A stretch of DNA of 64,000 nucleotides from Candidatus Poribacteria bacterium (lineage in GTDB: Bacteria; Poribacteria; WGA-4E; PCPOR2b), in the NCBI GenBank assembly GCA_965218095.1, contig OZ244587.1, positions 5,312,001-5,376,000 on the forward strand, written 5' to 3'. The position numbers and the translations under genes were made by a program. The notes under the pieces were generated by a model, which made no database searches, was not told the DNA's origin, and saw only the letters and a list, made by a program, of their open reading frames with translations. Below are positions 8,601 to 24,663 of this stretch, piece by piece (the stretch's first letter is position 1; the number at the start of each line of letters is the position of its first letter).

Positions 8601-8970
8601 ACGTTTTAATCAACGCTTCACTTTCGTCGGTCTGATCCATCAACTCGACCGACTCTATGATATTCTCTACGGTGTCTGCCCCCATCTGCCGACGTTCGGT
8701 TCGCTTGGGATAAGCCTGCGCTTCTGCAGCTTCTGCGACTTGCTCTAATCTGCGATACCCCTCGGCGAGCTGCTCCAACGTTTCACGATTGGTGGTGTTA
8801 CCGATCAGCAGGCGCAGTTCTTTGGCGTGCTGGAGTTCTTTCGCAATGCTTTGGAATCCCGACAGAAAAAAGTAGCCCACCGCGAATCTTGCTTTTTCAG
8901 TGGAGTCGAGGATGACGTTGATGTGCTCGACCAACTTTTCGTTGCGGTTGTCGATGATGTCGTGTTGCAT
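5635..8970 (-). CDS. SNF2-like SF2 helicase with N-terminal PLD (HKD) nuclease domain, R-M associated
   Basis: AVGYF, RLHAKAYIF, GSSNLT (PLD); DVVGLGKS, DESH, TATP, TDVLAEGLNLQD, QRFGRIDR (helicase). Confidence 0.9.
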   Translation of the reverse strand: MQHDIIDNRNEKLVEHINVILDSTEKARFAVGYFFLSGFQSIAKELQHAKELRLLIGNTTNRETLEQLAEGYRRLEQVAEAAEAQAYPKRTERRQMGADTVENIIESVELMDQTDESEALIKTLAKMIAEKRLLARVYTKGRLHAKAYIFDYDGDGRYEKGIAVVGSSNLTLSGVSHNTELNVVVQGNANHAELCRWFDELWDEAEDFDESLMEVMKSSWAIAPVRPYDIYMKTLYELVKDRLEGEDEADILWVDDIIKQLADFQKVAVRQAVQIIRDYGGAFVSDVVGLGKSYIGAAIVKYFERTENARPLIICPAPLIEMWERYNEVYQLNARVLSMGVLREGDGGQGEQVHSTASTILGDVIYRDRNFVLVDESHNFRHPDTQRYKVLQTFLATRRRCCFLTATPRNKSAWDIYHQIKLFHHNDITDLPIDPPNLRTYFRQIEKREKNLPDLLRNILIRRTRNHILRWYGFDEGTDHPVDPSRFQEYLDGHRKAYVVVGGKKQFFPKRVLETISYNIEDTYQGLYFKLREHIGKPRSSQLNSSSAGELTYARYGLWNYVIEAKQKQEPYTNLQRSGINLRGLMRILLFKRFESSVYAFKQTVRRLLAVHERFLEALEGGIVPAGEEAQAILYEPNEAEEQDLMDALRQASARYDIADFKIEALRADIEHDLQLLRGMSELVSPITAVQDAKLQILKQHLAEPPLNEGKCLIFTQYADTARYLFENLNPDGKRDEVDVIYSGDKSKERAVGRFAPKANPEYQFQGGESELFTLIATDVLAEGLNLQDGDKIINYDLHWNPVRLIQRFGRIDRIGSKHDVIYGFNFLPETGIEQNLGLQQILHHRIQEIHDTIGEDAAILDKSEQLNETAMYAIYEGEGEQLSLFENAEDEKAIDLNEAEEILRQLRHEDPAEYERIANLRDGIRTAMPKGSQGTYLFCQAGRYQQLFLLDEKGGIISRDISRILSYIKCEPELSGGELPTDYNAVIMGVKRLFTQEIRDLQSERKHTLSLTQAQRYVLKELQLIFRNAPDEDISAQADTLEKAFRGTITNAVNQELNLLRRNGVTGNALLQNLIDLYHQHNMGEWESRQRDAQLENESVPKIICSAALV

Positions 8971-9059
8971 GGATGCATCCTAGATCTTCTTGGAACGCGC
9001 AATCAATTGCGCTACTACAAGCCGTCAATTTGTCCAATCTTTCACTTGCAAGCCAGCCC

Positions 9060-9093
9060 CCGCTTGCTGTTGTAACTCTGCTTTTCGCATGGT
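9060..9093 (-). repeat. Gene-start scar copy 1 (MRKAELQQQA)
   Basis: 32/34 identical to 14672-14705; lies just after the NDT stop. Confidence 0.85.
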
Positions 9094-9098
9094 TGTTA

Positions 9099-9569
9099 TT
9101 ATTCCTTGGCCCAATCCACCAGTGCTTTATCGGGCGATGAAATATCGGCGATAGATGTGTAGTAGTAGCGTTCCCATCCGAGGCGGGGTAGGCCGGTGAA
9201 AATCATCAGGTTGAGTGGGTATTCATCACTATCGACGGCACGTCGAAAGTCGTCCCGAAATAGGAAGGTAGGCTTGCCGAGTGCGATCGCTATCCCTAGC
9301 TCAATCATGACTCCTTCATCTGGTGGCACTCCGTTCACGACCGCGAAAATCGCGTCTGCGTCGAATACATCCTGTTTATCCTTTTGTCCAATTCGGTATG
9401 CCCAGTCGGAGGATATTGTGTCTTGGTTGTTGCGTTCAAATGGCTCCCACACTTCTAAGCCAACCGCTTCCAATGCCTTAATGAGAGCGGGTAATATGGT
9501 TTCTCGTTGTTGCTCTGAGAAGCCGTAGGGGTTCGCAAGATATATTGTCTTTTTTTTGTTCACGGGCAT
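9099..9569 (-). CDS. Nucleoside 2-deoxyribosyltransferase family protein
   Basis: IYLANP, D..DVFDADAI, DEGVMIELGIAIALGKP, NLMI. Confidence 0.88.
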   Translation of the reverse strand: MPVNKKKTIYLANPYGFSEQQRETILPALIKALEAVGLEVWEPFERNNQDTISSDWAYRIGQKDKQDVFDADAIFAVVNGVPPDEGVMIELGIAIALGKPTFLFRDDFRRAVDSDEYPLNLMIFTGLPRLGWERYYYTSIADISSPDKALVDWAKE

Positions 9570-9574
9570 TGCTT

Positions 9575-10798
9575 TTACGATTCCCTCTCTTCTTGCAGGG
9601 ACTTGGCCGCAAAAATTGTTAAGCGTAATTCTTCGCCAAATAGTTCGTATACAGGGATTTTACCGCTCAGTCTTTCACTTTCGTTCAAAATGATACCAAC
9701 CCCTTCCCCCCGACGTTCTAAAAAGTGTCGCCGCACTACCTGTGCACCCATATCATCGTTGAGTGTCGTTTCCGAAAGTAGGCGAGCTAGGAGTTCGTTA
9801 CGGGGCGCTTGGTTGTAGCGCAAATCGTCCACCGTTAAGGTGTTTGCCAATGCACCCGGCGAATACAGTTCTAGCCGGTCAGTGAACATAAACAGACGAA
9901 TCTTCGATCCGGCTTTTGAATAATCTCTATGTACAACTGCATTAACCACTGCCTCAAAAACGGCTCTCATGCTGTATTGTGATCGTTCTATTCTGCCAAT
10001 TTCCTTGCGGGCCGATACTTGGTTGTATCTTTCAACAAATTTGAAGGCCTCCACAATCTGTTGGTCCAGCGGTCCCCTAAAATCCTTAGCATCAATCTGG
10101 TAGTTCGTATCCCTTTCCACGCCATTATAGAAAACAGCTTGAATGAAACTGTTATAGAGATAATCGTCGGGTTTATCATGACACATCAACAAACCGGCTA
10201 CCGAGGCGCGGTACTCCTCGCCTTCTTTGACTAGCAAACGTCTTTTAAGTAGCAGGTCTTCTATCTTCTCACGATCAGTCGCTCTTGCTGTAATAAATCG
10301 TTGATACAGCGTTTCCTTTAATGTGTCTTTGTGAGTGTTCGGCACGAACTGCTCATCAAAAGAGATTCTACGTGCCTGCGAGCGGCTTTGTAATAACCGC
10401 CCCAACTGCTCGGTGGTCATCTCTCTTTTGCTGCTGCCTTGGCGGATGAAATAACCGTTAGATGTTTTGTGAACAAACGGGCTCCGAGGCACCTCGATTT
10501 TTAACAGATTTTTATCATCAATCCGCAGTTTTTCTGTAACAATGTGAACCATGGAGTCAATGTTGTCCCGACATATCTCAAGCACTGTTTTCTCTGTCCT
10601 GTCCAAATCTCGGCGGTTCATGCCGACAATTTTGTTATGGTCGTCAACACCGATCAGTATTGCCCCACCGCTGGCGTTGGCAAAAGCAGCGATTTCATCG
10701 GCGAGACTCTCTCTGTGAGGTAACTCTCTTTTGAATTCAATCGTTGAGTCTTCTCCCAGATATATTTTTTCAGTGAGTTCTGTCAAACTGTCAAACAT
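9575..10798 (-). CDS. AlbA_2 (Schlafen-like) DNA-binding domain plus RecG C-terminal/HATPase_c_4 protein
   Basis: GEDSTIEFK, EIAAFANASGGAILIGVDD, EAVVNAVVHRDY, RLELYSPG, ERRGEG. Confidence 0.88.
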   Translation of the reverse strand: MFDSLTELTEKIYLGEDSTIEFKRELPHRESLADEIAAFANASGGAILIGVDDHNKIVGMNRRDLDRTEKTVLEICRDNIDSMVHIVTEKLRIDDKNLLKIEVPRSPFVHKTSNGYFIRQGSSKREMTTEQLGRLLQSRSQARRISFDEQFVPNTHKDTLKETLYQRFITARATDREKIEDLLLKRRLLVKEGEEYRASVAGLLMCHDKPDDYLYNSFIQAVFYNGVERDTNYQIDAKDFRGPLDQQIVEAFKFVERYNQVSARKEIGRIERSQYSMRAVFEAVVNAVVHRDYSKAGSKIRLFMFTDRLELYSPGALANTLTVDDLRYNQAPRNELLARLLSETTLNDDMGAQVVRRHFLERRGEGVGIILNESERLSGKIPVYELFGEELRLTIFAAKSLQEERES

Positions 10799-10824
10799 TG
10801 CTAATCCCCCAATCAATATATTAC

Positions 10825-10882
10825 TGTCTGCATCGTGGATTGTCGCAGACTAACGGAGGACACGGATTCAAAGGTAGTCAAT
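10825..10882. repeat. 58-bp junction repeat, copy A
   Basis: 52/58 identical to 14570-14627; the minus strand starts with codons IDYL*. Confidence 0.85.
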
Positions 10883-10918
10883 CAACTCAGAGAATGGAAT
10901 AGCTAGATGCCTTCCCAC

Positions 10919-11548
10919 TCAGTTCTGAGAGGGATCGGAAACTGATTGTGCGCTGCGGATGCGGTCTAATGTTCGCTTTAGACTTAGAGATGCAACAGCA
11001 GCACGTTCTAAATCCCAATGGGTTCGTACAAATTCGCTGAAACGACTGTTATATTCGGGACCTACTCTTGCGGTCGCTGCTCGTGGTCCCGGCACTAGCT
11101 GGTCTCGCAATCTTCTCTTGTTACTCCTTCGTGCAAGCGAGACCAGAAATTCTTTGGGATTGTCTATAACGTCTGTGTTGGACGGAATCCGATTTACGGG
11201 TATTGATAGAAATCCTGCGAGGGCACTCCGATCTGCCATAATCCAAGATTCGACTTCCATGACCGCAACGCGAAAGAAAAAACCAGGATTTAGGGAGCCT
11301 TTAACCCAAGATTCAATCAGGTTCGGAGGACAATTTTTGGAGGAGTCTAAATCTGTCAACATGAATACGTAAGGCGGTCCCTTGGCTGATCGGTTGAGTT
11401 CGATGGCTCTCCTTTGAAGGTAAGAATTCCCTTGATATGTATTTGGGATTCTTTGCACAATTTCGATACCAAAATGCTTTAGAATTTTAGTCGAAACTGC
11501 ATTGCTTAGTGCATCCTCAACTGCAAGGATTACGCTGTTTAGGCTCAT
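10919..11548 (-). CDS. DUF4276/TOPRIM-like protein, partner of the ABC ATPase
   Basis: LAVED, LTDLD, AVMEVESW; start overlaps the ATPase stop (TAATG). Confidence 0.75.
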   Translation of the reverse strand: MSLNSVILAVEDALSNAVSTKILKHFGIEIVQRIPNTYQGNSYLQRRAIELNRSAKGPPYVFMLTDLDSSKNCPPNLIESWVKGSLNPGFFFRVAVMEVESWIMADRSALAGFLSIPVNRIPSNTDVIDNPKEFLVSLARRSNKRRLRDQLVPGPRAATARVGPEYNSRFSEFVRTHWDLERAAVASLSLKRTLDRIRSAQSVSDPSQN

Positions 11549-12699
11549 TATAGGAAACTCAACTGTTCAGCATTTTCGGGTTTGGCTCTTGAAAGCACGG
11601 CTTCACTGACTGTCAATCCAGCCTCAAGGAGTGTTCGCACTTCATCAATATCGGAGGCTATTTTGACTGCGGTTCCCTCTTTTGCAGGTGTGAGCAAAAG
11701 CACCTCCCTCCCATCAATGCCGGCTTCTGTCAGCAGGGCATCGCTATGTGTACTAACGAAGACCTGTCGCCGCCGTCTTCTTTGCATCTTAGAAATAAGG
11801 GCCGCGAGCTGTGATACAATTCCCGCGTTTAATGAAAGTTCGGGCTCCTCCAATAAGAGGACGGACTCACTTTCGAGCAGTGCCCATAATAGCCCCAGAA
11901 GACGCAGCGTCCCGTCAGAAAATTGATCTTCGCGTTGCCGACCTGCATTCGGACGCCAGTGGGAATACAGTGCCTGTAAATGGGGGCGGCCGGTGGTTTC
12001 GTCGCGAATAAATTCCAAACCCTCAAGTTGAGGCACAGCAATTTTGAGGGCTTGTTCGATTCTTTTTAAGCGTGAACGGCGGGTTTTTTCCGGGACACTA
12101 GCGACCCTTTCAAGGAACCCTTGCCCAAACGGATCATCTTCAACGATTCTTCCCTGAATTGAATCGGCAAACCGTAAGAGTTGAGGAACCAGATGCAGGT
12201 ATGTGATGGTTTGGAGGAAACGCACTATTTCCCGAAAATCGGCATTAACATTAATCTGCTCAAGAAAGGTCTGGGTGAGTCGATCTCGATCCGCTTCATC
12301 TTCCGCATTTGGTCTACTAAGGAGTTGTTCACCATTTTTCCATACACGTTCATAAGTGAGATAGGTCCGGCGGTATCCACGCGTTTCTTGGCGAAATCCG
12401 AGTCCATATTTCCAAGTTGCAGGAGAGTCTGAATCGTCGGCAAGGTGAATTTCAATTGTAACTTCTGGATCGCGCCGCGCTGCCAAACTACGGATTTTAG
12501 AAACTCCGCCTCGGTCTTTGACCGCTTTCTGAAAGCCCCCTCCCTCTGCTTTTACGATATCTCGAAGAAAACGAAAGATATCGAGGAGGTTGGATTTGCC
12601 GGACGCATTCACGCCTATGATAAACTGGCGTTCGCTAAGACGCACATCAATCTGTTGAAAATTACGCCAGTTTTTCGCGATGAGGTGATTGATAATCAT
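11548..12699 (-). CDS. AAA_21/AbiEii-type ABC ATPase
   Basis: NWRNF, Walker A GVNASGKS, signature FSDGT, Walker B LLLEEPE, STHS. Confidence 0.9.
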   Translation of the reverse strand: MIINHLIAKNWRNFQQIDVRLSERQFIIGVNASGKSNLLDIFRFLRDIVKAEGGGFQKAVKDRGGVSKIRSLAARRDPEVTIEIHLADDSDSPATWKYGLGFRQETRGYRRTYLTYERVWKNGEQLLSRPNAEDEADRDRLTQTFLEQINVNADFREIVRFLQTITYLHLVPQLLRFADSIQGRIVEDDPFGQGFLERVASVPEKTRRSRLKRIEQALKIAVPQLEGLEFIRDETTGRPHLQALYSHWRPNAGRQREDQFSDGTLRLLGLLWALLESESVLLLEEPELSLNAGIVSQLAALISKMQRRRRRQVFVSTHSDALLTEAGIDGREVLLLTPAKEGTAVKIASDIDEVRTLLEAGLTVSEAVLSRAKPENAEQLSFL

Positions 12700-12780
12700 A
12701 ACAGTAACTCCCGATAAGTTTGATAATCAAATTCTGGTTCTGCTGTAGTGTATTTCCTTAGGGGCAAGGCGCCCGCGCCC

Positions 12781-12924
12781 GTAGGGAACAGCGATCCTCC
12801 GGTTCCGGTTCTGTTGGTTTCAGTGACTGAAACCAACAGAACCGTGAATCCACGATTCCGTAAGGATTGTTCCAATCCAACGGAATCGGGATCTGTGACC
12901 GAGAGTCCGAGAGTTGTTCCCTAC
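12781..12924. repeat. 144-bp GTAG-ended structured element with two internal hairpins
   Basis: Ends GTAGGGAACA/TGTTCCCTAC; perfect 19-bp inverted repeat 12806-12824/12826-12844; second stem ~12853-12888. Confidence 0.8.
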
Positions 12925-12939
12925 TGAAGTGCCTAAATC

Positions 12940-13872
12940 CTATCTAGGATTCCATTCGGCGTTATGTTCAGTGCTGAGTGTGGCTGCATCCGAATCGGTG
13001 TCTAAATCCACCCCATCGCCGTTCTTTAATAGCGAACGGGTTTTGTCGTGGAACTCTGGATTTTCCTTTCCCCGGATGTCATAACCCCAAATTCTGTTGT
13101 TGACGGCGTTATCTATAATGCTGTTGATGTAGGCATAGTCCAGATTGGTTCGCCGCTGAATCTCCTCTAGTTCCATACCGTTTTGGTACATACCGAGTAC
13201 CTCGTGCTTGACTTTTTCACGCGCCATCTTCTCTTTCATTTCATCTTCAGTGACGCCGGTTTCTGCCGTTATTTCATTAAAGCCTTTGCCTTCTCGTAAC
13301 ATATCGTGTGCTTTGTCTTGGTTTGTTATCTTGTCCAAGAGTTGCATTATTTTCGCATGGTCATTAGATTGTGCTTCGGTTTCGGTCTCCACTTCGGTAT
13401 CCTCGTCTGGGTCATTTTGCTCGACTGGCAGGGGTGGTGCTTTGACGCTCCTGACAGCTTGATTGAGAGTGAGCAATGCTTTCGGAACAAGTGAGATTCG
13501 CTCTTTTGGGCTAAGGGATGAAATTGTAGATTCCAGACTGTCATACGCGGCGTTCAATGCGCTCACTGCCTTAGATGCCAGTTGTCGGTGATGCTTCTCC
13601 AGCTCCCGCAGGTAATTCGCCTGCATTAGCCTGAATTGCTTATCCCACTTTCCGGCGTTGTAACAGCTATCGTTAGGGTTGACGGTGCAGATTGCCTCCT
13701 TTGCCCATCGATGGTCGGCTTTTGGATCGCCGGTTGTTCGCTCTGGGTATCGCTCGACAAGAGCGTCAGCGACTTCGGTGGTGCTATGATCGTGAGCAAA
13801 TAGAGAAAGCCATTCTGCTAGTTCGGATTGGGTCTGGTGGTATGGGTTTTTGTATTTTCGTTTTTGTGTCAT
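12940..13872 (-). CDS. Hypothetical 310-aa protein with two HTH-like segments
   Basis: Long ORF with AAGG RBS; AHDMLREGKGFNEITAETGVT and VLGMYQNGMELEEIQRRTNLD; acidic linker. Confidence 0.7.
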   Translation of the reverse strand: MTQKRKYKNPYHQTQSELAEWLSLFAHDHSTTEVADALVERYPERTTGDPKADHRWAKEAICTVNPNDSCYNAGKWDKQFRLMQANYLRELEKHHRQLASKAVSALNAAYDSLESTISSLSPKERISLVPKALLTLNQAVRSVKAPPLPVEQNDPDEDTEVETETEAQSNDHAKIMQLLDKITNQDKAHDMLREGKGFNEITAETGVTEDEMKEKMAREKVKHEVLGMYQNGMELEEIQRRTNLDYAYINSIIDNAVNNRIWGYDIRGKENPEFHDKTRSLLKNGDGVDLDTDSDAATLSTEHNAEWNPR

Positions 13873-14060
13873 TTTCTAACCTTTTTGGTGATTTCGACGG
13901 AGTGTTTAGGTGATTAGTTGTTTCGACAGGATTAAGGATTCAAATGGACGCTGATAAACGCAGATGAACACAGATTTCTTTCGTTTTTCTATTTTTATCT
14001 GTGACAATCAGCGAAATCTGCGTCTGCATCTACTTTTAGAACTGAAGCGCGTAAGTCCTA

Positions 14061-14474
14061 TTACATTTGGATTATGACAAATACGCCGATGATGAAGGCA
14101 ATCTCTACCATATAGAAAATAACAAGGGTGAGAGAAAAGATAGCGGAGGGCCAGCTACATTTGGGTTTATTTTTGTGCTTCATAGGATTCATCTCGAAAT
14201 CGGTATCGGATTGAACTCTGATTTCGCCGTATACTTGTCGAAACAACCTCTCCTGTTGGAGAAAGTATCCGTCCAGAATCCAAAACCCCAGGGCGGGAAG
14301 AATAAGCACCAAGACAAAATGTGAGTTTTGCATGTCCGGTTTGGCGATCAAAACCATCGCTGCGACAATGAGGATCATGCTCCAGCTTTTGACCCAGAAA
14401 CTGTTGCTCCCCAAACGGTTAATAACGGCTTGGGTCATTTTCAAATGCTCTACGACCTTTTCTGTGCCATTCAT
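14061..14474 (-). CDS. Small multi-TM membrane protein of a type often found in defence loci
   Basis: HLKMTQAVINRLGSNSFWVKSWS...FWILDGYFLQQERLFR; three hydrophobic segments. Confidence 0.75.
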   Translation of the reverse strand: MNGTEKVVEHLKMTQAVINRLGSNSFWVKSWSMILIVAAMVLIAKPDMQNSHFVLVLILPALGFWILDGYFLQQERLFRQVYGEIRVQSDTDFEMNPMKHKNKPKCSWPSAIFSLTLVIFYMVEIAFIIGVFVIIQM

Positions 14475-14569
14475 GGATTTATCCCTCAGCACGAAATCTT
14501 GAAATTTGGTGGTGTCATTTAAGGTTAATTTTCTTTCGAGGACTTGCTCTACAATGGCGATTTCCTCAT

Positions 14570-14627
14570 TGTCTGAATCGCGGATTGTTGCAGATTAACG
14601 GATGACACGGATTCAAAGATAGTCAAT
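14570..14627. repeat. 58-bp junction repeat, copy B
   Basis: 52/58 identical to 10825-10882. Confidence 0.85.
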
Positions 14628-14702
14628 GACCGCTTTCAGTTTTTCTGCCGAGAGTTGTTCAATTAACATAACCGCTTGCTGTTGTAGGTCTGCTTTTCGC
14701 AT
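14613..14702 (-). pseudogene. Truncated small antitoxin-like gene MRKADLQQQAVMLIEQLSAEKLKAVIDYL* (scar copy 2)
   Basis: Upstream purine-rich RBS; 29 codons ending inside the 58-bp repeat; antitoxin identity is inference. Confidence 0.55.
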
Positions 14703-14809
14703 GGTAATCCCTTATTCTCCTCTCAGGCTTTGTGGGGCGGAGATTCGTCTCCCGCAATCAAGATAGAAACGGGCGAATCAGGGCGCCTCTGCCACAAAAT
14801 ACCTTATTT

Positions 14810-15574
14810 TCATTTCGGGTAATCCCGTATCCGTAAATCTGCTGGCCATTCGGACATCTCATCACCTTTTCTTCCCCGGCTCCGCTTACGCGCCCAATCT
14901 GTGCCCATCTGCTTGACAAACAGGGCGACCGAGGCATCGAGGCACTGATCCCGAATATCAACAACCCACTCTTCCTCCATCGGTCTAGCATCTGTCCCTG
15001 ATTCCCCGCCAACGATTACCCAATCTATACCATCTAATCTGAGATTACCGAGTCGCCCAAGTAACGGCTCCAATGAAAGGAACTTAATTTGTGCCGCGGT
15101 CCCTCGTAGACAATCAATCCTGAAGGTATAGTCTACGCTTTCCACACTTACCCCCATCCAGATATTCGGCGGCCAAACCAATTGAGGACTCAATTCTGCA
15201 AGGCGTTCCGCACGTTTGGTTAGGACTTGAAATTGGTGCCAGTCAGCCCGTTTCATAACATCAAAGACCTTTTGGATGTACTCAAACGGCACACCTTCAT
15301 GGAACAAATCGCTCATGGAGTTAACGAAAATCAACCGAGGTCTTTTCCATTTTAAGGGTTGGTCCAAAAGGTGTGGTACACGTTGAATGCGGTTGGTCCA
15401 ACGGGGCCCAGCTTTCGTCATTTTGGCGAGCCCCTCGTATGCTAAGCCCTCGCGAGCAAATCGGGAGGCGATACGTTCGGCGTAGCAGAAGCGACAGCCT
15501 TCGGAGACACGGGTGCAGCCACGTACCGGATTCCATGTTGATTCTGTCCACTCGATCTTTGTTTGGGTAACCAT
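14810..15574 (-). CDS. DUF5131 (phage Gp37/Gp68) protein with Cx6Cx2C motif
   Basis: TKIEWTESTWNPVRGCTRVSEGCRFCYA, FVNSMSDLFH, LTKR, SLEPLL, WVIVGGESG. Confidence 0.93.
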   Translation of the reverse strand: MVTQTKIEWTESTWNPVRGCTRVSEGCRFCYAERIASRFAREGLAYEGLAKMTKAGPRWTNRIQRVPHLLDQPLKWKRPRLIFVNSMSDLFHEGVPFEYIQKVFDVMKRADWHQFQVLTKRAERLAELSPQLVWPPNIWMGVSVESVDYTFRIDCLRGTAAQIKFLSLEPLLGRLGNLRLDGIDWVIVGGESGTDARPMEEEWVVDIRDQCLDASVALFVKQMGTDWARKRSRGRKGDEMSEWPADLRIRDYPK

Positions 15575-15580
15575 TTTTGC

Positions 15581-16450
15581 CTACCTTCTCAAGATGTGTT
15601 CTGCAATTCCTACAGCGGTTGAAGCACCCCTCGGGTTTCCCGCTGCAAAACAGAGCAAGTATAATGGAATATTGCGGCTATTGTATAATCGCAGCGGATT
15701 TTTTGCAACTTCCGTAAATACCGAATCTAAACGCTCAATAAAATAGTGTTCAATAGCATCCCAATTATCGACTTTTTGTTGACTTGGAAGATTTTCAAAA
15801 AGTGAAGGTGTTTCACTCTCTTTGTAAAATTCATTGAACCAATCCTTAGTTCCAAAAAACTGGTCAAGTATATTTCGTATACCCTCGTCAATTTGGCCAT
15901 CTCTCCGCAAAAGCCGATTCACAGCGACTCCGAGCGGAAAAAGTAGCCACAAGTCAATTGCTTTGGTATTGGCAATTGCTTCGATCGTTTGCCACTTAAC
16001 TTCCATTCCATAAGGATCTAGGAACAAAACAGCTCTCCGTCTCGAAGATAGCCAATTATAACTACACAAATTTTGAACGTGTGTGTTCCCATCAGCCCTA
16101 ACAAGCTCAATACGGTCACGCAGATGCGGGAAGTCATCCTTTAATTTTTCGAGCTTGGAAAAACGATCTTTGTCTTTCTCAATAAATATGTACGTGTCAA
16201 ACTGAGGCTCCACTTTAAGCGCGACTCGTGCAGAGCCATCAAGAAACTCCAACATTTCAGGGAACATCAACTCTGAAGAATTTTCACTCTCTTTGAGTGT
16301 CCTATACCCCGCTCCGGCAAACGCATCAATATAGGCAAAGCGGAATGGTTGTTTATTCATTATGGTTGCGTAAGCAGAAAGATACTTGCGCACACGCTCT
16401 AGCTTTTCTTCTGTCCAATTGCCACCAAATTGTATTTTCTTCATTTTCAT
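15581..16450 (-). CDS. tcmP: Three-Cys-motif partner protein (TcmP family, SAM-binding-like fold)
   Basis: WTEEKL..YL, YIDAFAGAG, GSAR, FIEKD, FLDPYG; directly upstream of DUF5131; AGGAG RBS. Confidence 0.85.
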   Translation of the reverse strand: MKMKKIQFGGNWTEEKLERVRKYLSAYATIMNKQPFRFAYIDAFAGAGYRTLKESENSSELMFPEMLEFLDGSARVALKVEPQFDTYIFIEKDKDRFSKLEKLKDDFPHLRDRIELVRADGNTHVQNLCSYNWLSSRRRAVLFLDPYGMEVKWQTIEAIANTKAIDLWLLFPLGVAVNRLLRRDGQIDEGIRNILDQFFGTKDWFNEFYKESETPSLFENLPSQQKVDNWDAIEHYFIERLDSVFTEVAKNPLRLYNSRNIPLYLLCFAAGNPRGASTAVGIAEHILRR

Positions 16451-16459
16451 GCTCCTGTT

Positions 16460-16488
16460 ATTATATATTAACACATGTTAAGTTACAA
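16460..16488 (-). promoter_or_regulatory. sigma70-type promoter for tcmP with a palindrome in the spacer
   Basis: TTGTAA-N17-TATAAT on the minus strand; TTAACA-N2-TGTTAA at 16468-16481. Confidence 0.6.
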
Positions 16489-16544
16489 GTGATAGTTGAG
16501 GTTTTTTATCGCGTGATTGGTGTTTCAGTCGGTGTCATTTAAGT

Positions 16545-17649
16545 GAGGGGTGCTCATAAGTCCCCTTATCGAAAGAGTGTAATCAGATGTGTTACATTTC
16601 TCAGGGGTCTTCCCCAAATAGAATTGACTAACATAGCCAGTTGCAGTAAAACCACCCCCAGCATCAAAAAGGTAGAGACATTCGCTTTTCGACTCACCGG
16701 CAATTGCTTATGATTGGTATGGGTCGATAGTAATTGGCTCAACAATCCAAAGATAGGTTCAATAGCAACCTTGCGCTTGTGTTGATAGGTCTGCAACTGC
16801 GCCGATTGATTCACCGCTTCAACATAACGCCGTGCCCGCTGACTCTTTGCGCCTCTGACGGGAGTGATTAGCAACAGTCCCTGGTTCGCCAAGTGTTGGG
16901 TACGTTTCAAGTCGGTATAGCCGGCATCAGCGACTAAATACCCGATGTTCTGTTCAAGCAGTGTGTCGAGTTGTCGGTCAAGGACGGCTTTTTCACTCAC
17001 ACACGCGGTGTCAATGGCACTCATACGAGGCAATCCCTCTATAGAGACGGTCAGATGAAGCCCATAGCCGTAAACCCAACCGTGATAGTGACTCTTTGAC
17101 CAACTGGCGTCTGTGTCAATGGCACGGATGCCAGTTGGGATGCGATTGGCATTTCTATCCTTCTGATGCCAGACGCTTCCTTTTGCCTTAAACAGACTTT
17201 TGTCTTGGTAAACCACCTCTGGAGGTGAGTCAGGTATCAAAGTCATTCCCACATCACCGAGATACCCGATGAACGCCTCTAGCTGGTAAGCGAGTTGTTT
17301 GTAGCGTCGGCAAAGGGTTGCCCGAGACGGAACACATGCCAGTTTAAGACGACACAGCCACTGCGGGTGTAGCTTGAGCCATCTGTGTTGTGCCTTAAAG
17401 CGATGGAGGCCTTTGAGCGTTAAGATGGCAAAAAGGACAATCAAGCAGTCGTCTGTATACGATTTCGGACGTCCATGGCTCTCAGGTGGCGGTGCATGGC
17501 TGGAAGCGTTGAAATGGTCAAGTTGTTCAAACAAAAATGTGATATAATACGTACTGTCAGGATAACCCATGTTATAATCCTCTCTTTCTTGCACGTTAGA
17601 TTAGATTATAACCGTTATCCTGACTCAAGTCTACTTATGAGCACCCCTC
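16545..17649 (-). mobile_element. 1105-bp DDE IS (IS4/IS5/IS982-like), copy 1
   Basis: 17-bp IRs GAGGGGTGCTCATAAGT; 8-bp target duplication ATTTAAGT (16537-16544, 17650-17657). Confidence 0.95.
16566..17594 (-). CDS. DDE transposase (DDE_Tnp_1-like)
   Basis: GRPK, DTDASW..GWVYGYGLHL, VADAGY, RKVAIEPIFG. Confidence 0.92.
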   Translation of the reverse strand: MQEREDYNMGYPDSTYYITFLFEQLDHFNASSHAPPPESHGRPKSYTDDCLIVLFAILTLKGLHRFKAQHRWLKLHPQWLCRLKLACVPSRATLCRRYKQLAYQLEAFIGYLGDVGMTLIPDSPPEVVYQDKSLFKAKGSVWHQKDRNANRIPTGIRAIDTDASWSKSHYHGWVYGYGLHLTVSIEGLPRMSAIDTACVSEKAVLDRQLDTLLEQNIGYLVADAGYTDLKRTQHLANQGLLLITPVRGAKSQRARRYVEAVNQSAQLQTYQHKRKVAIEPIFGLLSQLLSTHTNHKQLPVSRKANVSTFLMLGVVLLQLAMLVNSIWGRPLRNVTHLITLFR

Positions 17650-17657
17650 ATTTAAGT

Positions 17658-17714
17658 GAGAGTTGTTCAATTAACGTTACCGCTTGCTATTGTAGGTCTG
17701 TTTTTGGCATGGTA
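17658..17714 (-). repeat. Gene-start scar copy 3 (MPKTDLQ*QAVTLIEQLS)
   Basis: 52/57 identical to 14650-14706; overlaps the 3' end of the HEPN-like gene. Confidence 0.85.
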
Positions 17715-18530
17715 TTTTCCTATAGCTTGGCATATCGTGGTGATGTATCTACGGAAGTGGAGCAGAAGAATCTCCTGATCTTCCCCTAACCAACTTTGGT
17801 CAACGCTCTGAGGGTGTCCAGCTTCGTTTCGGTTCTCACGATATATGTTCCCAAGCCTATTTAACCGATTCTTCAACTCTTCTCCGAATTTCTTATCAGT
17901 CCCAAAGGTGTTGGGAATGACCGTATTGGAGAGATATTCGGTTAAGCGCAAAATGTTCCCGCTCCTTCTCTTTTTTATATCTTTCTGATACTGTTTGGAG
18001 TGAGATTCTATAGATTCCGCTAACCAATGTATGGCTCTCTCTGAAGCAGCACCGAGACAAATCACAGATGAGATGTACAGTCCTTCTTGGTAGGCACGTA
18101 GGCTTTCAAGATAGTATTGTTTAACGACATTATCAAGTGTGCCAATTTTCTGTTCTAGCGCATCAACAATTTCTTGGGGCTTGTCCACCAAAAGCAGGAT
18201 TTCATCATCAAAGTCAGACTTCATGCCGATAGAGGTAAGATGAACAATGAATCTATCTTCTGAGCGAATGGTTCGCGATGGATATGAGAAGCCTCTCACC
18301 ACTAATCCCTTTCTTTCAAGCAGGGCAATTGCTTCTAATAGCTCAGCAGGATCGTGTTTTCCTGCATCAAGAAATAACTCCCTCCTTAAACAGGCAACAG
18401 GATAAAAGTCAGAACAATCAGGATCGGAAGTGATTTTCTCTTTCAGAAAACGAAATACAAATTTTGCTAGGGATTCCACATCCATCCCCCGAATCTGCTG
18501 TTGTTCTTGTTCACTGAGTCCGGTACGCAT
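17667..18530 (-). CDS. Putative wHTH + HEPN-like (Rx4H) protein
   Basis: ELLEAIALLERKGLV...HLTSIG (wHTH-like); ESLRAYQEGLYISSVICLGAASE and RNEAGH (HEPN-like); AT-rich. Confidence 0.65.
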   Translation of the reverse strand: MRTGLSEQEQQQIRGMDVESLAKFVFRFLKEKITSDPDCSDFYPVACLRRELFLDAGKHDPAELLEAIALLERKGLVVRGFSYPSRTIRSEDRFIVHLTSIGMKSDFDDEILLLVDKPQEIVDALEQKIGTLDNVVKQYYLESLRAYQEGLYISSVICLGAASERAIHWLAESIESHSKQYQKDIKKRRSGNILRLTEYLSNTVIPNTFGTDKKFGEELKNRLNRLGNIYRENRNEAGHPQSVDQSWLGEDQEILLLHFRRYITTICQAIGKYHAKNRPTIASGNVN

Positions 18531-18609
18531 TGACTTTTATCCCCTCATTACTCAAAACTCATATCTATCCCTTCAAACTCCTTGCTTTCGGCACAATTGT
18601 GGTATTTTG

Positions 18610-19638
18610 TTAGGCATATCTTGAGCGAGCGGTAAATAAATATGAATATACATCTGTTTCGACTTTGTCACTACCACCAAGGCCCACCAACGCTCCTGTG
18701 GCTGCAATGGCAGCTCCTACCGGATCTCCCTTACTCAAATTCCAAACGGCACCAGCCAAACCTAAGCAAAATGATGCAGGCTTTTTCCACGTTTTGCGCG
18801 TCAGTTTACAAAGATCACTTGCCATTGATTCCAGTTCCTCCTGACGTGCCTCGAATGCTTGATCTCGCTCTCTAGATTCCATAAGACTCAACTCACGGAC
18901 AAACTTGCGTACACACAGGGTGTAGTTTCGATGTTCCGAATAATGCTCCCCGCGAAAAGCAAGGACTTCTTCAATAGGAACTGATCCTAAGTCAACTCCG
19001 ACAGTATTCATATCAAAGGCGATTATGTCATTGACTGTAGGGGTTGATGAGATAGACACAAGTTCTCCAAGTGCTTTAACTAACTCAGGGCGATCAGTTG
19101 CTGGAGATAAATCTAATCCCTGTTTTTGTCCTTGAGGGCGCAAAATATGTGCAAGCAGGACAAGTATCAGTGATCGAACAGTCGTATTTATTGGGATTGA
19201 GTGCCCTCCATCTTTTGTGTCTTTAGCCAACCCACGACTTTTCAGTTCTTCAAAAATCATTTGTGCTAACTCTGGATCTCCATCAAAACCTAGACGCGAC
19301 TTCGAAATAGAACCAAAAGCAGTTGTTTTATTAAGTTCATCAAGTGCGCCCGAAGTTATAATATCTGTGAGTTTTGAAACAAGTTCACAAGTTGCATCTT
19401 TATCTACAGCAGTTTCCGGTTTTATAACATGGAACAATCCATATTCCCTAAGACCTGTGATTATAGCGAGGTCATCAAGCCAAGAATGTTCTTCCATGTA
19501 GTTGGGAATAAGCATTCCAATTCCATCAAAGAAAAGGATTAGATTTTTAACCCAATCTGGATCAAAAAGATACTGATTTGGATAATAAAAAGCAACTTCT
19601 GGAAGTACTTTTGATTCCTTAGAAAATTGGTTTTTCAC
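18610..19638 (-). CDS. Hypothetical protein, DUF6236-like N-terminus; native GTG start separated from its RBS by an IS
   Basis: AFYYP...WVKNLILFFDGI; hydrophobic/Gly-rich tail; the empty site reads AAGGAG-TTAATTCAA-GTG. Confidence 0.65.
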   Translation of the reverse strand: MKNQFSKESKVLPEVAFYYPNQYLFDPDWVKNLILFFDGIGMLIPNYMEEHSWLDDLAIITGLREYGLFHVIKPETAVDKDATCELVSKLTDIITSGALDELNKTTAFGSISKSRLGFDGDPELAQMIFEELKSRGLAKDTKDGGHSIPINTTVRSLILVLLAHILRPQGQKQGLDLSPATDRPELVKALGELVSISSTPTVNDIIAFDMNTVGVDLGSVPIEEVLAFRGEHYSEHRNYTLCVRKFVRELSLMESRERDQAFEARQEELESMASDLCKLTRKTWKKPASFCLGLAGAVWNLSKGDPVGAAIAATGALVGLGGSDKVETDVYSYLFTARSRYA

Positions 19639-19649
19639 TTGAATTAACT

Positions 19650-20754
19650 GAGGGGTGCTCATAAGTCCCCTTATCGAAAGAGTGTAATCAGATGTGTTAC
19701 ATTTCTCAGGGGTCTTCCCCAAATAGAATTGACTAACATAGCCAGTTGCAGTAAAACCACCCCCAGCATCAAAAAGGTAGAGACATTCGCTTTTCGACTC
19801 ACCGGCAATTGCTTATGATTGGTATGGGTCGATAGTAATTGGCTCAACAATCCAAAGATAGGTTCAATAGCAACCTTGCGCTTGTGTTGATAGGTCTGCA
19901 ACTGCGCCGATTGATTCACCGCTTCAACATAACGCCGTGCCCGCTGACTCTTTGCGCCTCTGACGGGAGTGATTAGCAACAGTCCCTGGTTCGCCAAGTG
20001 TTGGGTACGTTTCAAGTCGGTATAGCCGGCATCAGCGACTAAATACCCGATGTTCTGTTCAAGCAGTGTGTCGAGTTGTCGGTCAAGGACGGCTTTTTCA
20101 CTCACACACGCGGTGTCAATGGCACTCATACGAGGCAATCCCTCTATAGAGACGGTCAGATGAAGCCCATAGCCGTAAACCCAACCGTGATAGTGACTCT
20201 TTGACCAACTGGCGTCTGTGTCAATGGCACGGATGCCAGTTGGGATGCGATTGGCATTTCTATCCTTCTGATGCCAGACGCTTCCTTTTGCCTTAAACAG
20301 ACTTTTGTCTTGGTAAACCACCTCTGGAGGTGAGTCAGGTATCAAAGTCATTCCCACATCACCGAGATACCCGATGAACGCCTCTAGCTGGTAAGCGAGT
20401 TGTTTGTAGCGTCGGCAAAGGGTTGCCCGAGACGGAACACATGCCAGTTTAAGACGACACAGCCACTGCGGGTGTAGCTTGAGCCATCTGTGTTGTGCCT
20501 TAAAGCGATGGAGGCCTTTGAGCGTTAAGATGGCAAAAAGGACAATCAAGCAGTCGTCTGTATACGATTTCGGACGTCCATGGCTCTCAGGTGGCGGTGC
20601 ATGGCTGGAAGCGTTGAAATGGTCAAGTTGTTCAAACAAAAATGTGATATAATACGTACTGTCAGGATAACCCATGTTATAATCCTCTCTTTCTTGCACG
20701 TTAGATTAGATTATAACCGTTATCCTGACTCAAGTCTACTTATGAGCACCCCTC
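19650..20754 (-). mobile_element. 1105-bp DDE IS, copy 2
   Basis: Same IRs and transposase as copy 1; 8-bp target duplication AATTAACT (19642-19649, 20755-20762). Confidence 0.95.
19671..20699 (-). CDS. DDE transposase, identical protein to 16566-17594
   Basis: The translations in the ORF track are identical. Confidence 0.92.
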   Translation of the reverse strand: MQEREDYNMGYPDSTYYITFLFEQLDHFNASSHAPPPESHGRPKSYTDDCLIVLFAILTLKGLHRFKAQHRWLKLHPQWLCRLKLACVPSRATLCRRYKQLAYQLEAFIGYLGDVGMTLIPDSPPEVVYQDKSLFKAKGSVWHQKDRNANRIPTGIRAIDTDASWSKSHYHGWVYGYGLHLTVSIEGLPRMSAIDTACVSEKAVLDRQLDTLLEQNIGYLVADAGYTDLKRTQHLANQGLLLITPVRGAKSQRARRYVEAVNQSAQLQTYQHKRKVAIEPIFGLLSQLLSTHTNHKQLPVSRKANVSTFLMLGVVLLQLAMLVNSIWGRPLRNVTHLITLFR

Positions 20755-20858
20755 AATTAACTCCTTATTGTAGGGGATGTATAAAATCCTGTCATATCTA
20801 CAAAAGCCTTGAAGGTCTTTGCCAACGAAATTTTATCTCTGAAGATTCAATCTGACGA

Positions 20859-20887
20859 AGTATACCCCACAACTGTTAAGCTGTCAA
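20859..20887 (-). promoter_or_regulatory. Near-consensus sigma70 promoter at the head of the cargo array
   Basis: TTGACA-N17-TATACT on the minus strand, pointing into the array. Confidence 0.7.
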
Positions 20888-20921
20888 TAGAATCGTGAGG
20901 CAATCTAGGGTCGTCTAGCAC

Positions 20922-20951
20922 GGGCGGGCGGATACGGAGATCCGCCCCTAC
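20922..20951 (-). repeat. GTAG-type REP palindrome
   Basis: GTAGGGGCGGATCTCCGTATCCGCCC. Confidence 0.65.
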
Positions 20952-20979
20952 AAATTCCACAAAATCCCCTGTTGCCCTT

Positions 20980-23900: not shown

Positions 23901-24663
23901 GCTCGTCTGCTGACCGGTAGCTCTCCCAAAACGACCGGAGAAACTCGGTATCCTCACCGAGCCAACGTTTGCGCTGAATAAAGTAGAGGAACATACAACG
24001 GTTGAGGAACTGCAACGCATAATCGTGTGCCCGGCGATGGTCTGCGGTCTGAATCGCCAAGTCGTCCTGAAGGACTTGGAAAACAGATTTATAATCTTCA
24101 AAGAATTGCTTTGTGACTGCTTCGACATCGAAGGCTTCTTCGTGACGCTTCTGAATTGCGAGCGGCGACAACTCTTCCAAATTGGGACTATCGATGGATT
24201 CCAAGTCAAGCATCGCAATCCGCTCGGATGCCGTGCGGAGTTTCTCATGAGGACTAATTGTGATGCGGCGGAATAGGCGGCGTCTCTCGGAGTCACCTGT
24301 ATCGTATTTGACATTGACAAAGTGCCAATCCGTTCGTTCCCGGTTGCTGAAGACGAATAGGGTGTAGGGATGGTCTTCTAGGAGCTTAGAGATGACAGGG
24401 CGTTCAGCCGTCAGCAGCAGACGGTCTGAGTTAAGACGGGCGTAGATGACATGAAAAGCGTTGTCCGTTCCGCCCGTCGCAAAGAGAACTGGATCGTCGG
24501 CGAGGGCATTTTTAGCCGTGTCCGTCCAGTCCTGACGGGAAATCCCGTCGTTTTGACGGTCATAGTTTAACTCTGTCCAGAACAGTTCCCGGAGGGGTTC
24601 GATTCCTCGAAAATCTGTGAGGAGTTGGCCGAGATTTTTTTGATGTTCGCGGTCATGGTGCAC
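20980..24663 (-). CDS. Eco57I/type IIG-like N6-adenine DNA methyltransferase with C-terminal specificity region
   Basis: YLNGGLF, DPEMIGKVYE, GIFYTP, DPACGSG (motif I), GNPPY (motif IV), SDLY, ITSNSWL. Confidence 0.92.
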   Translation of the reverse strand: MHHDREHQKNLGQLLTDFRGIEPLRELFWTELNYDRQNDGISRQDWTDTAKNALADDPVLFATGGTDNAFHVIYARLNSDRLLLTAERPVISKLLEDHPYTLFVFSNRERTDWHFVNVKYDTGDSERRRLFRRITISPHEKLRTASERIAMLDLESIDSPNLEELSPLAIQKRHEEAFDVEAVTKQFFEDYKSVFQVLQDDLAIQTADHRRAHDYALQFLNRCMFLYFIQRKRWLGEDTEFLRSFWESYRSADEPVDSFVNHWLKVLFFEAFNNKFHGGHRHFPDTIREALALAPYLNGGLFTENNLDGEHDFLISDVRFKRIFEFLENYNFTIAEDSPLDQEVAVDPEMIGKVYESLVNVSTEADERGDAGIFYTPRTEIDLMCRLALVDNLTNHLGETHKNLLYEVLFAFNPDDKARADEKLAEMQLWEPLDASLKELAVVDPACGSGSFLVGMLHILDDLRTRANQRLGQEESSFDRKKGIIGQNLYGVDVMEWACHVAELRLWLALIIDADFPREELHLRKDPLLPHFSFNIRCGDSLVQEIGGMNLAQIRADFSGVPPALKARITRLKNEKLKFFNNDPVCRYRSEKELQQEELRLFRELVDTHAKDIKEQIDDLQQLIDGPRERQMRLDGTIEERAVHQLDLQAMEWRKQIEALTEDRDRLTEVRNALVSAKDVPFVWDIAFVELFTDEKSGFDIVIGNPPYVRQENISDPKAPREKITTTNKKAYKAKLARSVYQAFPRFFGYRREKDIKPDNPSAAVSHKLDAKSDLYIYFYFHGLSLLNPEGAFCFITSNSWLDVGYGKDLQEFTLKHCHVKQIIDNQARRSFAAADVNTVICLFSAPDEKRERGLDRTTRFVAFKVPFEGVLDAVIFYEIETTPERLSTQEHCVFPISHGDLLKAGSDDATPRTKYTGDKWGGKYLRAPDIYWTILEKGKDKLVRLGDVAEVQRGFTTGANDFFYFNSANPIGNGLMRVINEDGWEGEIEQHFLRRVIRSPRNCYRIAIPDTVGSMAFWCHQSRESLRGTSALEYIRYGESEGYHTGSSVASRQNWYSLPEQRRANLFWPRAFFERFICYLAPQNVMASDRFFTIDAHGLPSLPIFLNTLLPYLWVELQGLQVNHGGIDTKVVLLEKIPVCRDLEITPSLHDIFQELRNRPIDLVSDEIERCDRQEFDYAVLSQIGLSKAEVRALHLFVAESARMRILKARRRPTAKVVVSGGNREV

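Follow-up and report, generated by a model that had tools for sequence, protein, structure and literature searches.

A variable array of defense genes between a methyltransferase gene and a helicase gene in Candidatus Poribacteria

The locus and its relatives

We studied 64,000 nucleotides (nt) of DNA from a Candidatus Poribacteria bacterium that is a symbiont of sponges (contig OZ244587.1, positions 5,312,001 to 5,376,000), which we call the window, and within it an array of about 12 kb that lies between a DNA methyltransferase gene and a helicase gene. All of the large open reading frames (ORFs) from 5635 to 24663 are on the minus strand. We refer to the two outer genes as the frame and to the genes between them as the cargo. 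A preliminary description of this DNA had placed the array between a methyltransferase and a helicase, and those are indeed its flanks: an Eco57I/MmeI-type methyltransferase and a protein that joins a phospholipase D-type (PLD or HKD) nuclease to an SNF2 helicase. It had counted nine cargo genes, transposases included; we find 12 ORFs between the frame genes, of which ten are cargo genes and two are transposases of insertion sequences. The frame and cargo genes, from upstream to downstream, are:

20980-24663, minus strand: upstream frame gene, type IIG-like N6-adenine DNA methyltransferase (1227 aa); Pfam Eco57I (1.1e-33), MmeI_Mtase, and N6_Mtase; PADLOC REase_MTase_IIG (2.5e-50)
18610-19638, minus strand: 342-aa DUF6236-like cargo gene, GTG start at 19638; weak match to Pfam DUF6236 (5.5e-4), and its atlas neighbors have DUF6236
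17667-18530, minus strand: 287-aa cargo gene of a widespread uncharacterized family (atlas clusters of hypothetical proteins, 0.96-0.97); its 3' end runs into a decayed copy of the MRKA stretch that is described below
14810-16474, minus strand: TcmP-like gene (15581-16474) and DUF5131 gene resembling a "radical SAM mobile pair" (14810-15574), together the PADLOC candidate PDC-M41; NCBIfam TIGR04474 (220.6 bits, cut-off 53), Pfam DUF5131 (2.2e-89), PDC-M41A (4.6e-116), PDC-M41B (3.8e-98)
14061-14474, minus strand: PDC-M50A membrane protein, 137 aa from its ATG; PADLOC PDC-M50A (5.7e-36)
12940-13872, minus strand: 310-aa cargo gene of unknown function (scanned with Pfam and PADLOC); relatives hold only fragments of it
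10919-12699, minus strand: HEC-01 cassette, an ABC-type ATPase (11548-12699) and a DUF4276/TOPRIM-like partner (10919-11548); PADLOC HEC-01A (3.6e-158) and HEC-01B (2.2e-56), Pfam AAA_21 (5.5e-37)
9099-10798, minus strand: Schlafen/AlbA_2-HATPase_c_4 gene (SLFN, 9575-10798) and nucleoside 2-deoxyribosyltransferase-like gene (NDT, 9099-9569); Pfam SLFN_AlbA_2 (1.3e-24), HATPase_c_4 (3.9e-17), Nuc_deoxyrib_tr (6.4e-27)
5635-8970, minus strand: downstream frame gene, HKD-SNF2 helicase (1111 aa); Pfam PLDc_2, SNF2-rel_dom, and Helicase_C; PADLOC C3a139 "HKD+Snf2" (1.4e-82)

The two frame genes probably work together as a restriction-modification-like system. Both fall below the curated cut-offs of all of the NCBIfam models for BREX, DISARM, MADS, and Zorya; the methyltransferase reaches the cut-off of no BREX, MADS, or Alw26I model in NCBIfam, and the helicase reaches that of no NCBIfam model (for DrmD it scores 138 bits, and 610 are needed). 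Their linkage extends well beyond this clade. Among 68 loci from other phyla and from more distant Poribacteria (L065-L132), 40 have both genes on one strand with the methyltransferase gene upstream, and none has it downstream; many of the other 28 are on short contigs. The gap between the two genes can be as small as 24-258 nt in these distant loci (by tblastn), and in 11 of the 12 relatives in the window's clade, it is 4.4-15.8 kb. Judging from the compact pairs, the two genes formed a compact operon ancestrally, which the Poribacteria clade has opened up.

Within the clade, the content of the opened operon is highly variable, as the preliminary description had supposed. Three other genera of the family contain 12 orthologs of the helicase, which are 75-88% identical to it. 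Of these 12 loci, 11 retain the frame, with the methyltransferase gene upstream and on the strand of the helicase gene; in the twelfth (G002), the helicase gene is preceded by just the NDT gene and housekeeping genes. The window and the 11 relatives thus provide 12 arrays, and they show 12 different architectures that draw on a shared pool of cassettes. Some blocks recur in new orders: HD-f2, GNAT-f24, TIR-f25-M50A, DUF5131-HEC-01, and SLFN-NDT, where f2, f24, and f25 are cargo families. Beyond the cassettes in the window, the pool includes TIR, HD with f2, GNAT with f24, an 877-aa ABC-type ATPase, SAVED, ThiF, AbiTii, 8xMP, and Fic genes, and several of these are defense families according to PADLOC or Pfam (TIR, HD, SAVED, AbiTii, and Fic). 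We take the SAVED and ThiF genes to be CBASS-like. The commonest cargo family is f2, which is found in 8 of the 12 relatives' loci and has no match in Pfam; it is the partner of the HD protein, and from the motifs in its alignment, we presume that it has an antitoxin-like domain of the Panacea/DUF4065 type. We had considered f2 as a candidate recombinase or regulator and dropped that idea. The relatives' arrays also carry IS630, IS200-like, and other DDE elements.

Two relatives differ from the window within the frame itself. In L033 and L037, the match to the methyltransferase is limited to residues 1-946, at about 81% identity, and the last ~280 residues have been replaced. The replaced residues are presumably the target-recognition part, which lies next to the array. 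From this replacement (the corresponding part of the window is 20980-21800), the variable zone seems to start inside the methyltransferase gene.

The cargo also varies gene by gene. PDC-M50A is in 8 of the 12 relatives' loci, once at just 39% identity and twice as a fragment, and the SLFN and NDT genes are joined in some relatives and separate in others. The three cargo genes of unknown function encode proteins of 342, 287, and 310 aa. The 287-aa protein has no match in Pfam, PADLOC, or NCBIfam, and a relative (L035) has a C-terminal fragment of its gene, likewise with a copy of the MRKA stretch. Among the 12 loci compared, the 342-aa and 287-aa genes (17667-19638) occur together only in the window's array, and they may be an undescribed two-gene defense system. 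We flag this pair, the 310-aa protein, and f2 as candidate anti-phage genes.

Sequences at the cassette junctions

The junctions between cargo genes contain two kinds of recurring sequence: pieces of an antitoxin gene, which we call MRKA from the beginning of its translation, and an element of about 50 nt. They lie at:

17658-17723, minus strand: MRKA copy B, a decayed antitoxin 5' end with a stop in the eighth codon (by sequence comparison and reading frame), interrupted by insertion sequence copy 1
14511-14715, minus strand: junction block, comprising a truncated 29-codon antitoxin gene (14613-14702), the ~50-nt element (14568-14617), a leader, and a 13-mer (14511-14523)
14568-14617, minus strand: ~50-nt element, copy 1, within the junction block
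10822-10882, minus strand: ~50-nt element, copy 2 (10822-10872), with a 12-nt antitoxin relic before it; between HEC-01 and the SLFN gene
9060-9093, minus strand: MRKA copy C, a 34-nt relic of an antitoxin gene start (21 codons), just upstream of the helicase gene

The repeats that had been reported for the array are all present at the identities given for them. A 34-nt repeat occurs at 9060, 14672, and 17680, with the second and third copies being 94% and 85% identical to the first; 14650-14706 and 17658-17714 are identical at 52 of 57 positions (91.2%); the 58-nt "IDYL*" repeat at 10825 and 14570 is identical at 52 of 58 positions (90%); and the 13-mer GGTGTCATTTAAG has exactly two matches, at 14511 and 16531 (0.07 matches are expected in shuffled sequences, and 1 of 100 shuffles reaches two). 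The MRKA sequence had been described as a gene start that follows three different cargo genes. It does recur at three junctions, where it is what remains of toxin-antitoxin cassettes. In 20 of the 29 genomes of the family we find the MRKA stretch, with up to six copies each and often two or three copies within a few kb. In the relatives, it forms the 5' part of intact antitoxin-like genes of 69-76 aa, which have a conserved N-terminal half and one of three C-terminal types. A 69-aa antitoxin is paired with a Doc toxin (TIGR01550, 50.6 bits, above the cut-off), and a 76-aa antitoxin is paired with a RelE-like toxin (below the cut-off). In the window, none of the three copies (one of 29 codons, one with a stop in codon 8, and one of 21 codons) has a toxin gene behind it, so none is a type II toxin-antitoxin module. 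Because the copies are truncated and lack the toxin gene, we interpret them as relics of toxin-antitoxin cassettes, and more precisely as truncated 5' ends of a multi-copy family of putative Doc/RelE-type antitoxin genes. The 13-mer at 16531-16543 adjoins insertion sequence copy 1, and if the insertion sequence is removed, the 13-mer stands directly behind the MRKA copy at 17658-17723. It follows that this junction is the 14511-14715 block in a shorter form.

The ~50-nt element is the main part of the "IDYL*" repeat. A profile of it yields nine strong copies in the genome (6.35 Mb), of which two are those in the window and seven, all on one strand, are at a second locus at 3.52-3.53 Mb. We aligned 56 strong copies from 15 genomes of four genera, and 28 columns are at least 90% conserved. 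The consensus has four AATCC(G) direct repeats with a spacing of 9-10 nt, followed by ATTCAGACA. Of the 41 hits in the window, at the second locus, and at the loci of the relatives, 37 point the same way as the genes, and 24 of 25 copies in the arrays lie outside of ORFs. Around the helicase, the element keeps to one side: within 10 kb, the loci of the relatives have 19 hits upstream of the helicase and none downstream. There are no hits in the loci from other phyla.

The second locus is paralogous to the one in the window (G000:C1:3508438-3537134, which includes our loci L001 and L002). There, an HKD-SNF2 helicase gene adjoins a IIG-like methyltransferase gene, and beyond this pair are about 26 kb of co-oriented genes, including TIR-TPR, FRG-TPR, Fic, PDDEXK_3, a second methyltransferase, a fused PARIS-like gene, and a PDC-M50A fragment. 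Besides its seven strong copies of the element, this locus has four inverted doublets of it.

A 17-nt core of the element is more widely distributed. It is a family-wide repeat, with 1-82 exact copies in each of 26 of the 29 genomes, as compared to none in the reversed control. We searched the genome for the supposed scars, as had been suggested. All three MRKA copies in this genome are in this locus, and 11 of the 21 exact cores are inside the two methyltransferase/helicase arrays, which make up about 0.6% of the genome (a roughly 90-fold enrichment); but the other ten cores are dispersed, and about seven of these ten sites are among housekeeping genes. Cores lie next to genes for COX3, Pup ligase, and an SRP54-type GTPase, for example. 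Cores also form inverted doublets of 75-164 nt with outward TGT...ACA termini, and these fold into long hairpins (one folds at -15.9 kcal/mol, z -3.1). Four of the doublets, each of 78 nt (G000:C1:1350637, 2206926, 2843472, and 3165585), have identical flanks on both sides, so they are internal parts of a larger repeat with four copies. As an intergenic sequence that is found genome-wide in multiple copies and that can form hairpin doublets, the core would be classed with repetitive extragenic palindromic (REP) sequences and REPINs or with miniature inverted-repeat transposable elements (MITEs). We also considered an autonomous transposon with the element at its ends, as there are pairs on the minus and plus strands that are 1.4-2 kb apart in G004 and G007. 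These are further arrays beside genes of ~1100 aa (judged by size alone), and there is no obvious transposon.

To map breakpoints, we compared the 12 arrays all against all with blastn and counted a breakpoint as being at the element if it lay within 15 nt. Of 291 clusters of breakpoints, 31 are at the element, as compared to 5.4 expected from uniform placement. If only intergenic positions are considered, then 26 of 171 are at the element, as compared to 13.1 expected, which is about a 2-fold excess. Some breakpoints coincide with the very edges of the element. In the window, six comparisons put the start of the SLFN block at the 5' edge of the element, and two put it at the 3' edge. The HEC-01 block has its end at the 3' edge in one comparison, and three comparisons place the start of the PDC-M50A block either inside the element or at that edge. 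Between L041 and L043, three indels have edges exactly at element edges. Others lie elsewhere, such as at the exact boundary of the SLFN and NDT genes. The proposal that modules are swapped at short shared boundary sequences is thus borne out for some breakpoints and not for the ~90% that lie away from the element.

The sequences of the elements do not point to a fixed crossover point. The sharing of variants had suggested that each element belongs to the cassette upstream of it, as an attC site would, but a pairwise test showed no preference for either side: elements that share only the upstream flank have a similarity of 0.816 (32 pairs), those that share only the downstream flank have 0.815 (39 pairs), and those that share neither have 0.780. 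Also, copies within a genome are slightly more similar than copies from different genomes (0.806 vs. 0.777), a difference that was reached by 0 of 2,000 permutations of the labels, with the caveat that the pairs are not independent. The equal sharing of flanks and the likeness within genomes fit crossovers or gene conversion within a shared sequence.

The window's array has also been altered by transposition. We list the insertion sequences (ISs) along with a promoter-like site:

20859-20887, minus strand: promoter-like site TTGACA-17-TATACT, 93 nt past the methyltransferase stop and before the first cargo gene; 11 of 12 positions match, a match to the consensus only
19649-20755, minus strand: IS copy 2, with a 342-aa DDE transposase (19671-20699; Pfam DDE_Tnp_1 and DDE_Tnp_1_3); target duplication ATTAAC
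16544-17650, minus strand: IS copy 1, with a transposase (16566-17594); target duplication TTTAAG at 16538-16543 and 17651-17656

With a DDE transposase, inverted ends, target duplications, and two copies, these are insertion sequences. The copies have no mismatches over 1107 bp, perfect inverted ends of 18 bp, and target duplications of 6 bp, which implies recent insertions of a single IS. In NCBIfam, the closest model is that of IS982, whose cut-off of 130 bits is not reached (57 bits). Copy 1 inserted within a junction block, where it interrupts MRKA copy B. Copy 2 sits ahead of the GTG of the first cargo gene and downstream of the AAGGAG ribosome-binding site, and it cuts this 342-aa gene off from that site and from the promoter-like site. 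The promoter-like site itself is where it had been reported, ahead of the array. As a class, such sites are not commoner than in shuffled sequences (22 vs. 19.3 +/- 4.2). Two other features deserve mention. First, between the 310-aa gene and HEC-01A is a perfect palindrome of 39 nt (12806-12844, with 19-nt arms and a 1-nt center), which might terminate transcription in both directions or be bound by a protein. Second, there are no tRNA genes in positions 1-30000 of the window, which speaks against a tRNA-linked island.

How the arrays may be reshuffled

The preliminary description called the locus integron-like. The locus is not an integron, nor is it a cluster of attC sites lacking an integron-integrase (CALIN). 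As the preliminary description had noted, the array contains no integrase: domain searches of the locus's 13 proteins, of 48 proteins that represent the relatives' loci, and of the second locus turned up no integrase or recombinase domains, and the relatives' array proteins scanned (the 48 representatives) include neither a tyrosine nor a serine recombinase. Copies or fragments of IS3-type transposases (HTH_21 and rve) do occur, but outside of the array, just downstream of the helicase (1844-2589, which is split into two frames, and 4630-5403). Genome-wide, no sequence exceeds the 265-bit cut-off of the integron integrase model TIGR02249. The best match, at 216 bits, is a decayed pseudogene of a tyrosine recombinase with seven stops (G000:C1:1536854-1537808), 3.8 Mb away, far from both arrays, and with no copies of the element nearby.

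There are no attC-type sites either, again as first described. When folded as DNA, each of seven single elements was no more stable than its shuffles (z from +0.9 to -1.6), and the consensus structure from 56 copies is negligible (four pairs, -3.3 kcal/mol). Rfam has no match in the window or in L002. With single copies unfolded and without an Rfam match, we reject the idea that the element is a structured RNA or an attC site. Nor are RYYYAAC or GTTRRRY ends conserved on either strand of the consensus, by reading. The lack of an integrase, of the attC fold, and of the attC end motifs rules out both classes. The cassettes are co-oriented. Plus-strand elements across the 12 arrays number only 25, far below the number of gene junctions, and the element is not linked to the upstream cassette; it travels equally with either neighbor.

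Instead, we propose that the locus is an embedded defense island in a restriction-like frame and that its content is shuffled by ordinary recombination, presumably homologous, without a dedicated integrase. We put the probability of this at roughly 0.6. A two-gene restriction-modification-like system would now serve as the constant frame around a hypervariable island, with co-oriented anti-phage and toxin-antitoxin cassettes inside. The cassettes are probably exchanged by three routes. First, crossovers may occur in short sequences that are common to many cassettes, that is, the ~50-nt element and the conserved 5' ends of the antitoxin genes. Second, larger stretches may be exchanged through the conserved frame genes after the uptake of DNA from related strains. 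Third, insertion sequences hop into the arrays. What had been called scars would then be footprints of these events, namely truncated antitoxin starts and copies of the element that are fused to foreign flanks.

Several observations weigh against this proposal. Of the 291 breakpoint clusters, 260 (about 90%) are away from the element, and most cassette junctions do not contain it, so short shared sequences explain only part of the shuffling. Many of the "breakpoints" from blastn may be limits of divergence rather than crossovers. The element is conserved over four genera and its flanks are not, and its four AATCC repeats are about one helical turn apart; such phased repeats look like a protein-binding site, and a dedicated factor could be involved. 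The joint action of the frame genes is deduced from their domain content and their conserved linkage. Finally, recombination was not observed directly, and the joints in metagenome contigs have short sides and are ambiguous.

The metagenome data deserve some comment. In nine runs from three studies, 0.26-0.61 of the locus's sampled words are present, and those RNA runs in which parts of the locus occur are labeled as sponge metagenomes. We compared the locus to contigs from Logan, which are short and were placed at 90% likeness. In two studies, contigs join 10811 to 14568. We considered a deletion and rejected it: the joint is best read as a relative's ordinary junction of the element with SLFN. 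Contigs from two studies also join 9562 to 20870, with a side of 35 nt. This is weak evidence, but it hints at strains that have the NDT gene directly after the region near the methyltransferase. Depth is low at 15795-16429 and 17700-19604 in all three of the DNA runs, which we did not use as evidence. In the RNA run, 24 of 30 bins are covered, which does not demonstrate transcription. Long-read metagenomes of sponges should make it possible to test how the arrays change.

Alternatively, the element might be mainly a regulatory sequence (an operator, promoter, or leader) that is shared by the 5' ends of cassettes, and it would mark boundaries simply because that is where cassettes start. A regulator would then recognize the AATCC repeats; one possibility is the N-terminal domain that is conserved in the MRKA antitoxins. 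It is well established that toxin-antitoxin operons regulate themselves through operator repeats. The position of the element is suitable: in 16 of 25 array copies, the next called ORF starts 6-130 nt past it, and where we read the sequences directly, many elements end about 25-40 nt before the likely start codon. The usual order in the relatives is the element, a short leader, and the antitoxin start. Also, the element recurs before the same genes (SLFN, f2, M50A, and f26, another cargo family) in different loci, and since it is unstructured, it probably acts as double-stranded DNA. However, seven genomes have the element without any match to MRKA at E <= 0.01, so the antitoxin is not an obligatory partner, and the core also lies between housekeeping genes. 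By reading, the consensus contains no sigma-70-like hexamers at a good spacing. We consider it unlikely that regulation is the main explanation.

In one relative, L037 (G024), at oriented coordinates 14022-16382, there are three tandem f26 genes of ~210 aa that are coiled-coil-like, each of which follows a near-identical copy of the element and the 3' flank of HEC-01B. This is a local amplification of a cassette.

Another possibility is that the element is a true site for recombination or transposition by an enzyme that acts in trans and is encoded elsewhere, so that the capture of cassettes would be analogous to that of integrons but unrelated. One form of this would be a transposon end that is one-sided: the other strand of the element starts with TGTCTGAATC, followed by repeated CGGATT sites. 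In favor of this, the element is directional and is conserved in 56 copies across four genera, with the phased direct repeats that are typical of protein-binding sites; it is enriched ~90-fold in the two arrays; some indel edges are exactly at its edges; and its inverted doublets have outward termini and form hairpins. On the other hand, neither the 12 arrays nor the second locus has a recombinase, and none was seen close to three more arrays (judged by ORF size only for the latter); we also found no autonomous element with such ends. The only strong integron-integrase-like sequence is the distant pseudogene, which is below the cut-off. The element is not owned by one neighbor, and most junctions are without it. 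Four of the dispersed doublets are inside a larger repeat, as their outer flanks are identical, and there are no clear target duplications. We consider such an enzyme quite improbable. A related idea, which also seems improbable to us, is that the element, with its four helically phased AATCC repeats ending in GATTCAGACA, is the recognition site of a trans-acting protein, possibly the flanking HKD-SNF2 protein itself, that captures, excises, or reshuffles cassettes in the restriction-like operons of Poribacteria. If a dedicated factor does act on the element, it would be a new kind of gene-capture system, and if the element is such a recognition site, then the system would be an integrase-free functional analog of the integron that is dedicated to immunity genes.

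We think it very improbable that the repeats have no link to the variability, with decayed toxin-antitoxin duplicates and a generic intergenic repeat in a "genomic sink" where unrelated indels and ISs accumulate: although the core is widespread, most dispersed sites are among housekeeping genes, the breakpoint excess over the intergenic null is just 2-fold, and transposition is evident in the arrays (two recent IS insertions in the window, and IS630, IS200-like, and DDE elements), this would leave unexplained the ~90-fold enrichment of the element in the arrays, its restriction to the upstream side of the helicase, the breakpoints exactly at its edges in several independent comparisons, and the clustering of all three MRKA copies in one locus.

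Comparison with known systems

The frame genes resemble parts of known systems. Class 1 DISARM and the type ISP and type IIG restriction enzymes match our locus in their set of domains, in which an N6-adenine methyltransferase that has a module of the MmeI/Eco57I type is combined with SNF2 helicase and PLD nuclease domains. Here, in contrast, PLD and SNF2 are fused in one protein. The DISARM models score low (138 of the 610 bits required for DrmD and 22 of 133 for DrmC), and there is no separate DrmA or DrmB in the locus, just a weak partial match to DrmA on the helicase. As for BREX, the PglX models score at most 48 bits, as compared to cut-offs of 400-900, and neither PglZ nor BrxC is present in the locus. 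The helicase matches HmaA in part (5.3e-24, residues 505-906), far worse than it matches C3a139, and no protein of the locus matches HmaC.

The element is like REP sequences, BIMEs (bacterial interspersed mosaic elements), REPINs, and MITEs in being short, lineage-specific, multi-copy, and intergenic; in occurring as singlets and hairpin doublets; and in lying between housekeeping genes. REP-type elements are known hot spots for recombination and for IS insertion. The element differs in its low copy number (21 exact cores in 6.35 Mb) and in that half of its copies are in two defense arrays, where they are single, gene-oriented, and unstructured, with direct repeats. As for a transposase of the RAYT type, genes for IS200-like Y1 transposases are near three loci, but they are not flanked by the element.

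Sedentary chromosomal integrons, which are described as reservoirs of anti-phage cassettes (bioRxiv 10.1101/2024.07.02.601686 and 10.1101/2024.07.02.601719; PMC12614218), resemble our arrays in having small defense or toxin-antitoxin cassettes in one direction, a homogeneous short repeat between some of them, and contents that vary among strains. Unlike those integrons, our locus has no intI, no attI, no attC-type hairpin, and no RYYYAAC/GTTRRRY ends. Here, the element is at a minority of junctions, the cassettes often comprise several genes, and the frame is one restriction-like system.

The closest parallel is the embedding of co-oriented defense genes within other defense systems, which was described for Hma, BREX, DISARM, and type I restriction-modification systems (Payne et al., bioRxiv 10.1101/2024.01.29.577857). 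According to the main text of that preprint, 96.7% of embedded cargo is co-oriented, and HEC-01, which was defined there, gave no protection in its assays. The mechanism of embedding was left open (a "genomic sink"), and the main text contains none of the terms recombination, hotspot, and integron. Embedding is already known, and the route by which genes enter is the open question. The Poribacteria clade offers a natural series for addressing it, with the same two frame genes, 12 arrays, one pool of cassettes, and recognizable joints, and the second locus of the same design in the same genome adds to the series.

By its sequence, our locus would count as an embedded defense island: it has a linked frame pair with a predicted anti-phage role of its own, co-oriented cargo, and the known or candidate defense families HEC-01, PDC-M41, PDC-M50A, and SLFN. 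Like the loci in the main text of the preprint, it holds co-oriented cargo between the genes of a methylation-based defense system, and the cargo includes candidate families that were defined by such embedding, HEC-01 among them. It differs from them in three ways. The host is a two-gene pair of a methyltransferase and an HKD-SNF2 protein (C3a139), which is outside the four systems that were analyzed there. The array is much longer, with ten cargo genes in 12 kb, and it reaches 15.8 kb in the relatives. Finally, in this clade, all 12 of the arrays differ, and they carry a conserved junction element and the relics of antitoxin genes.

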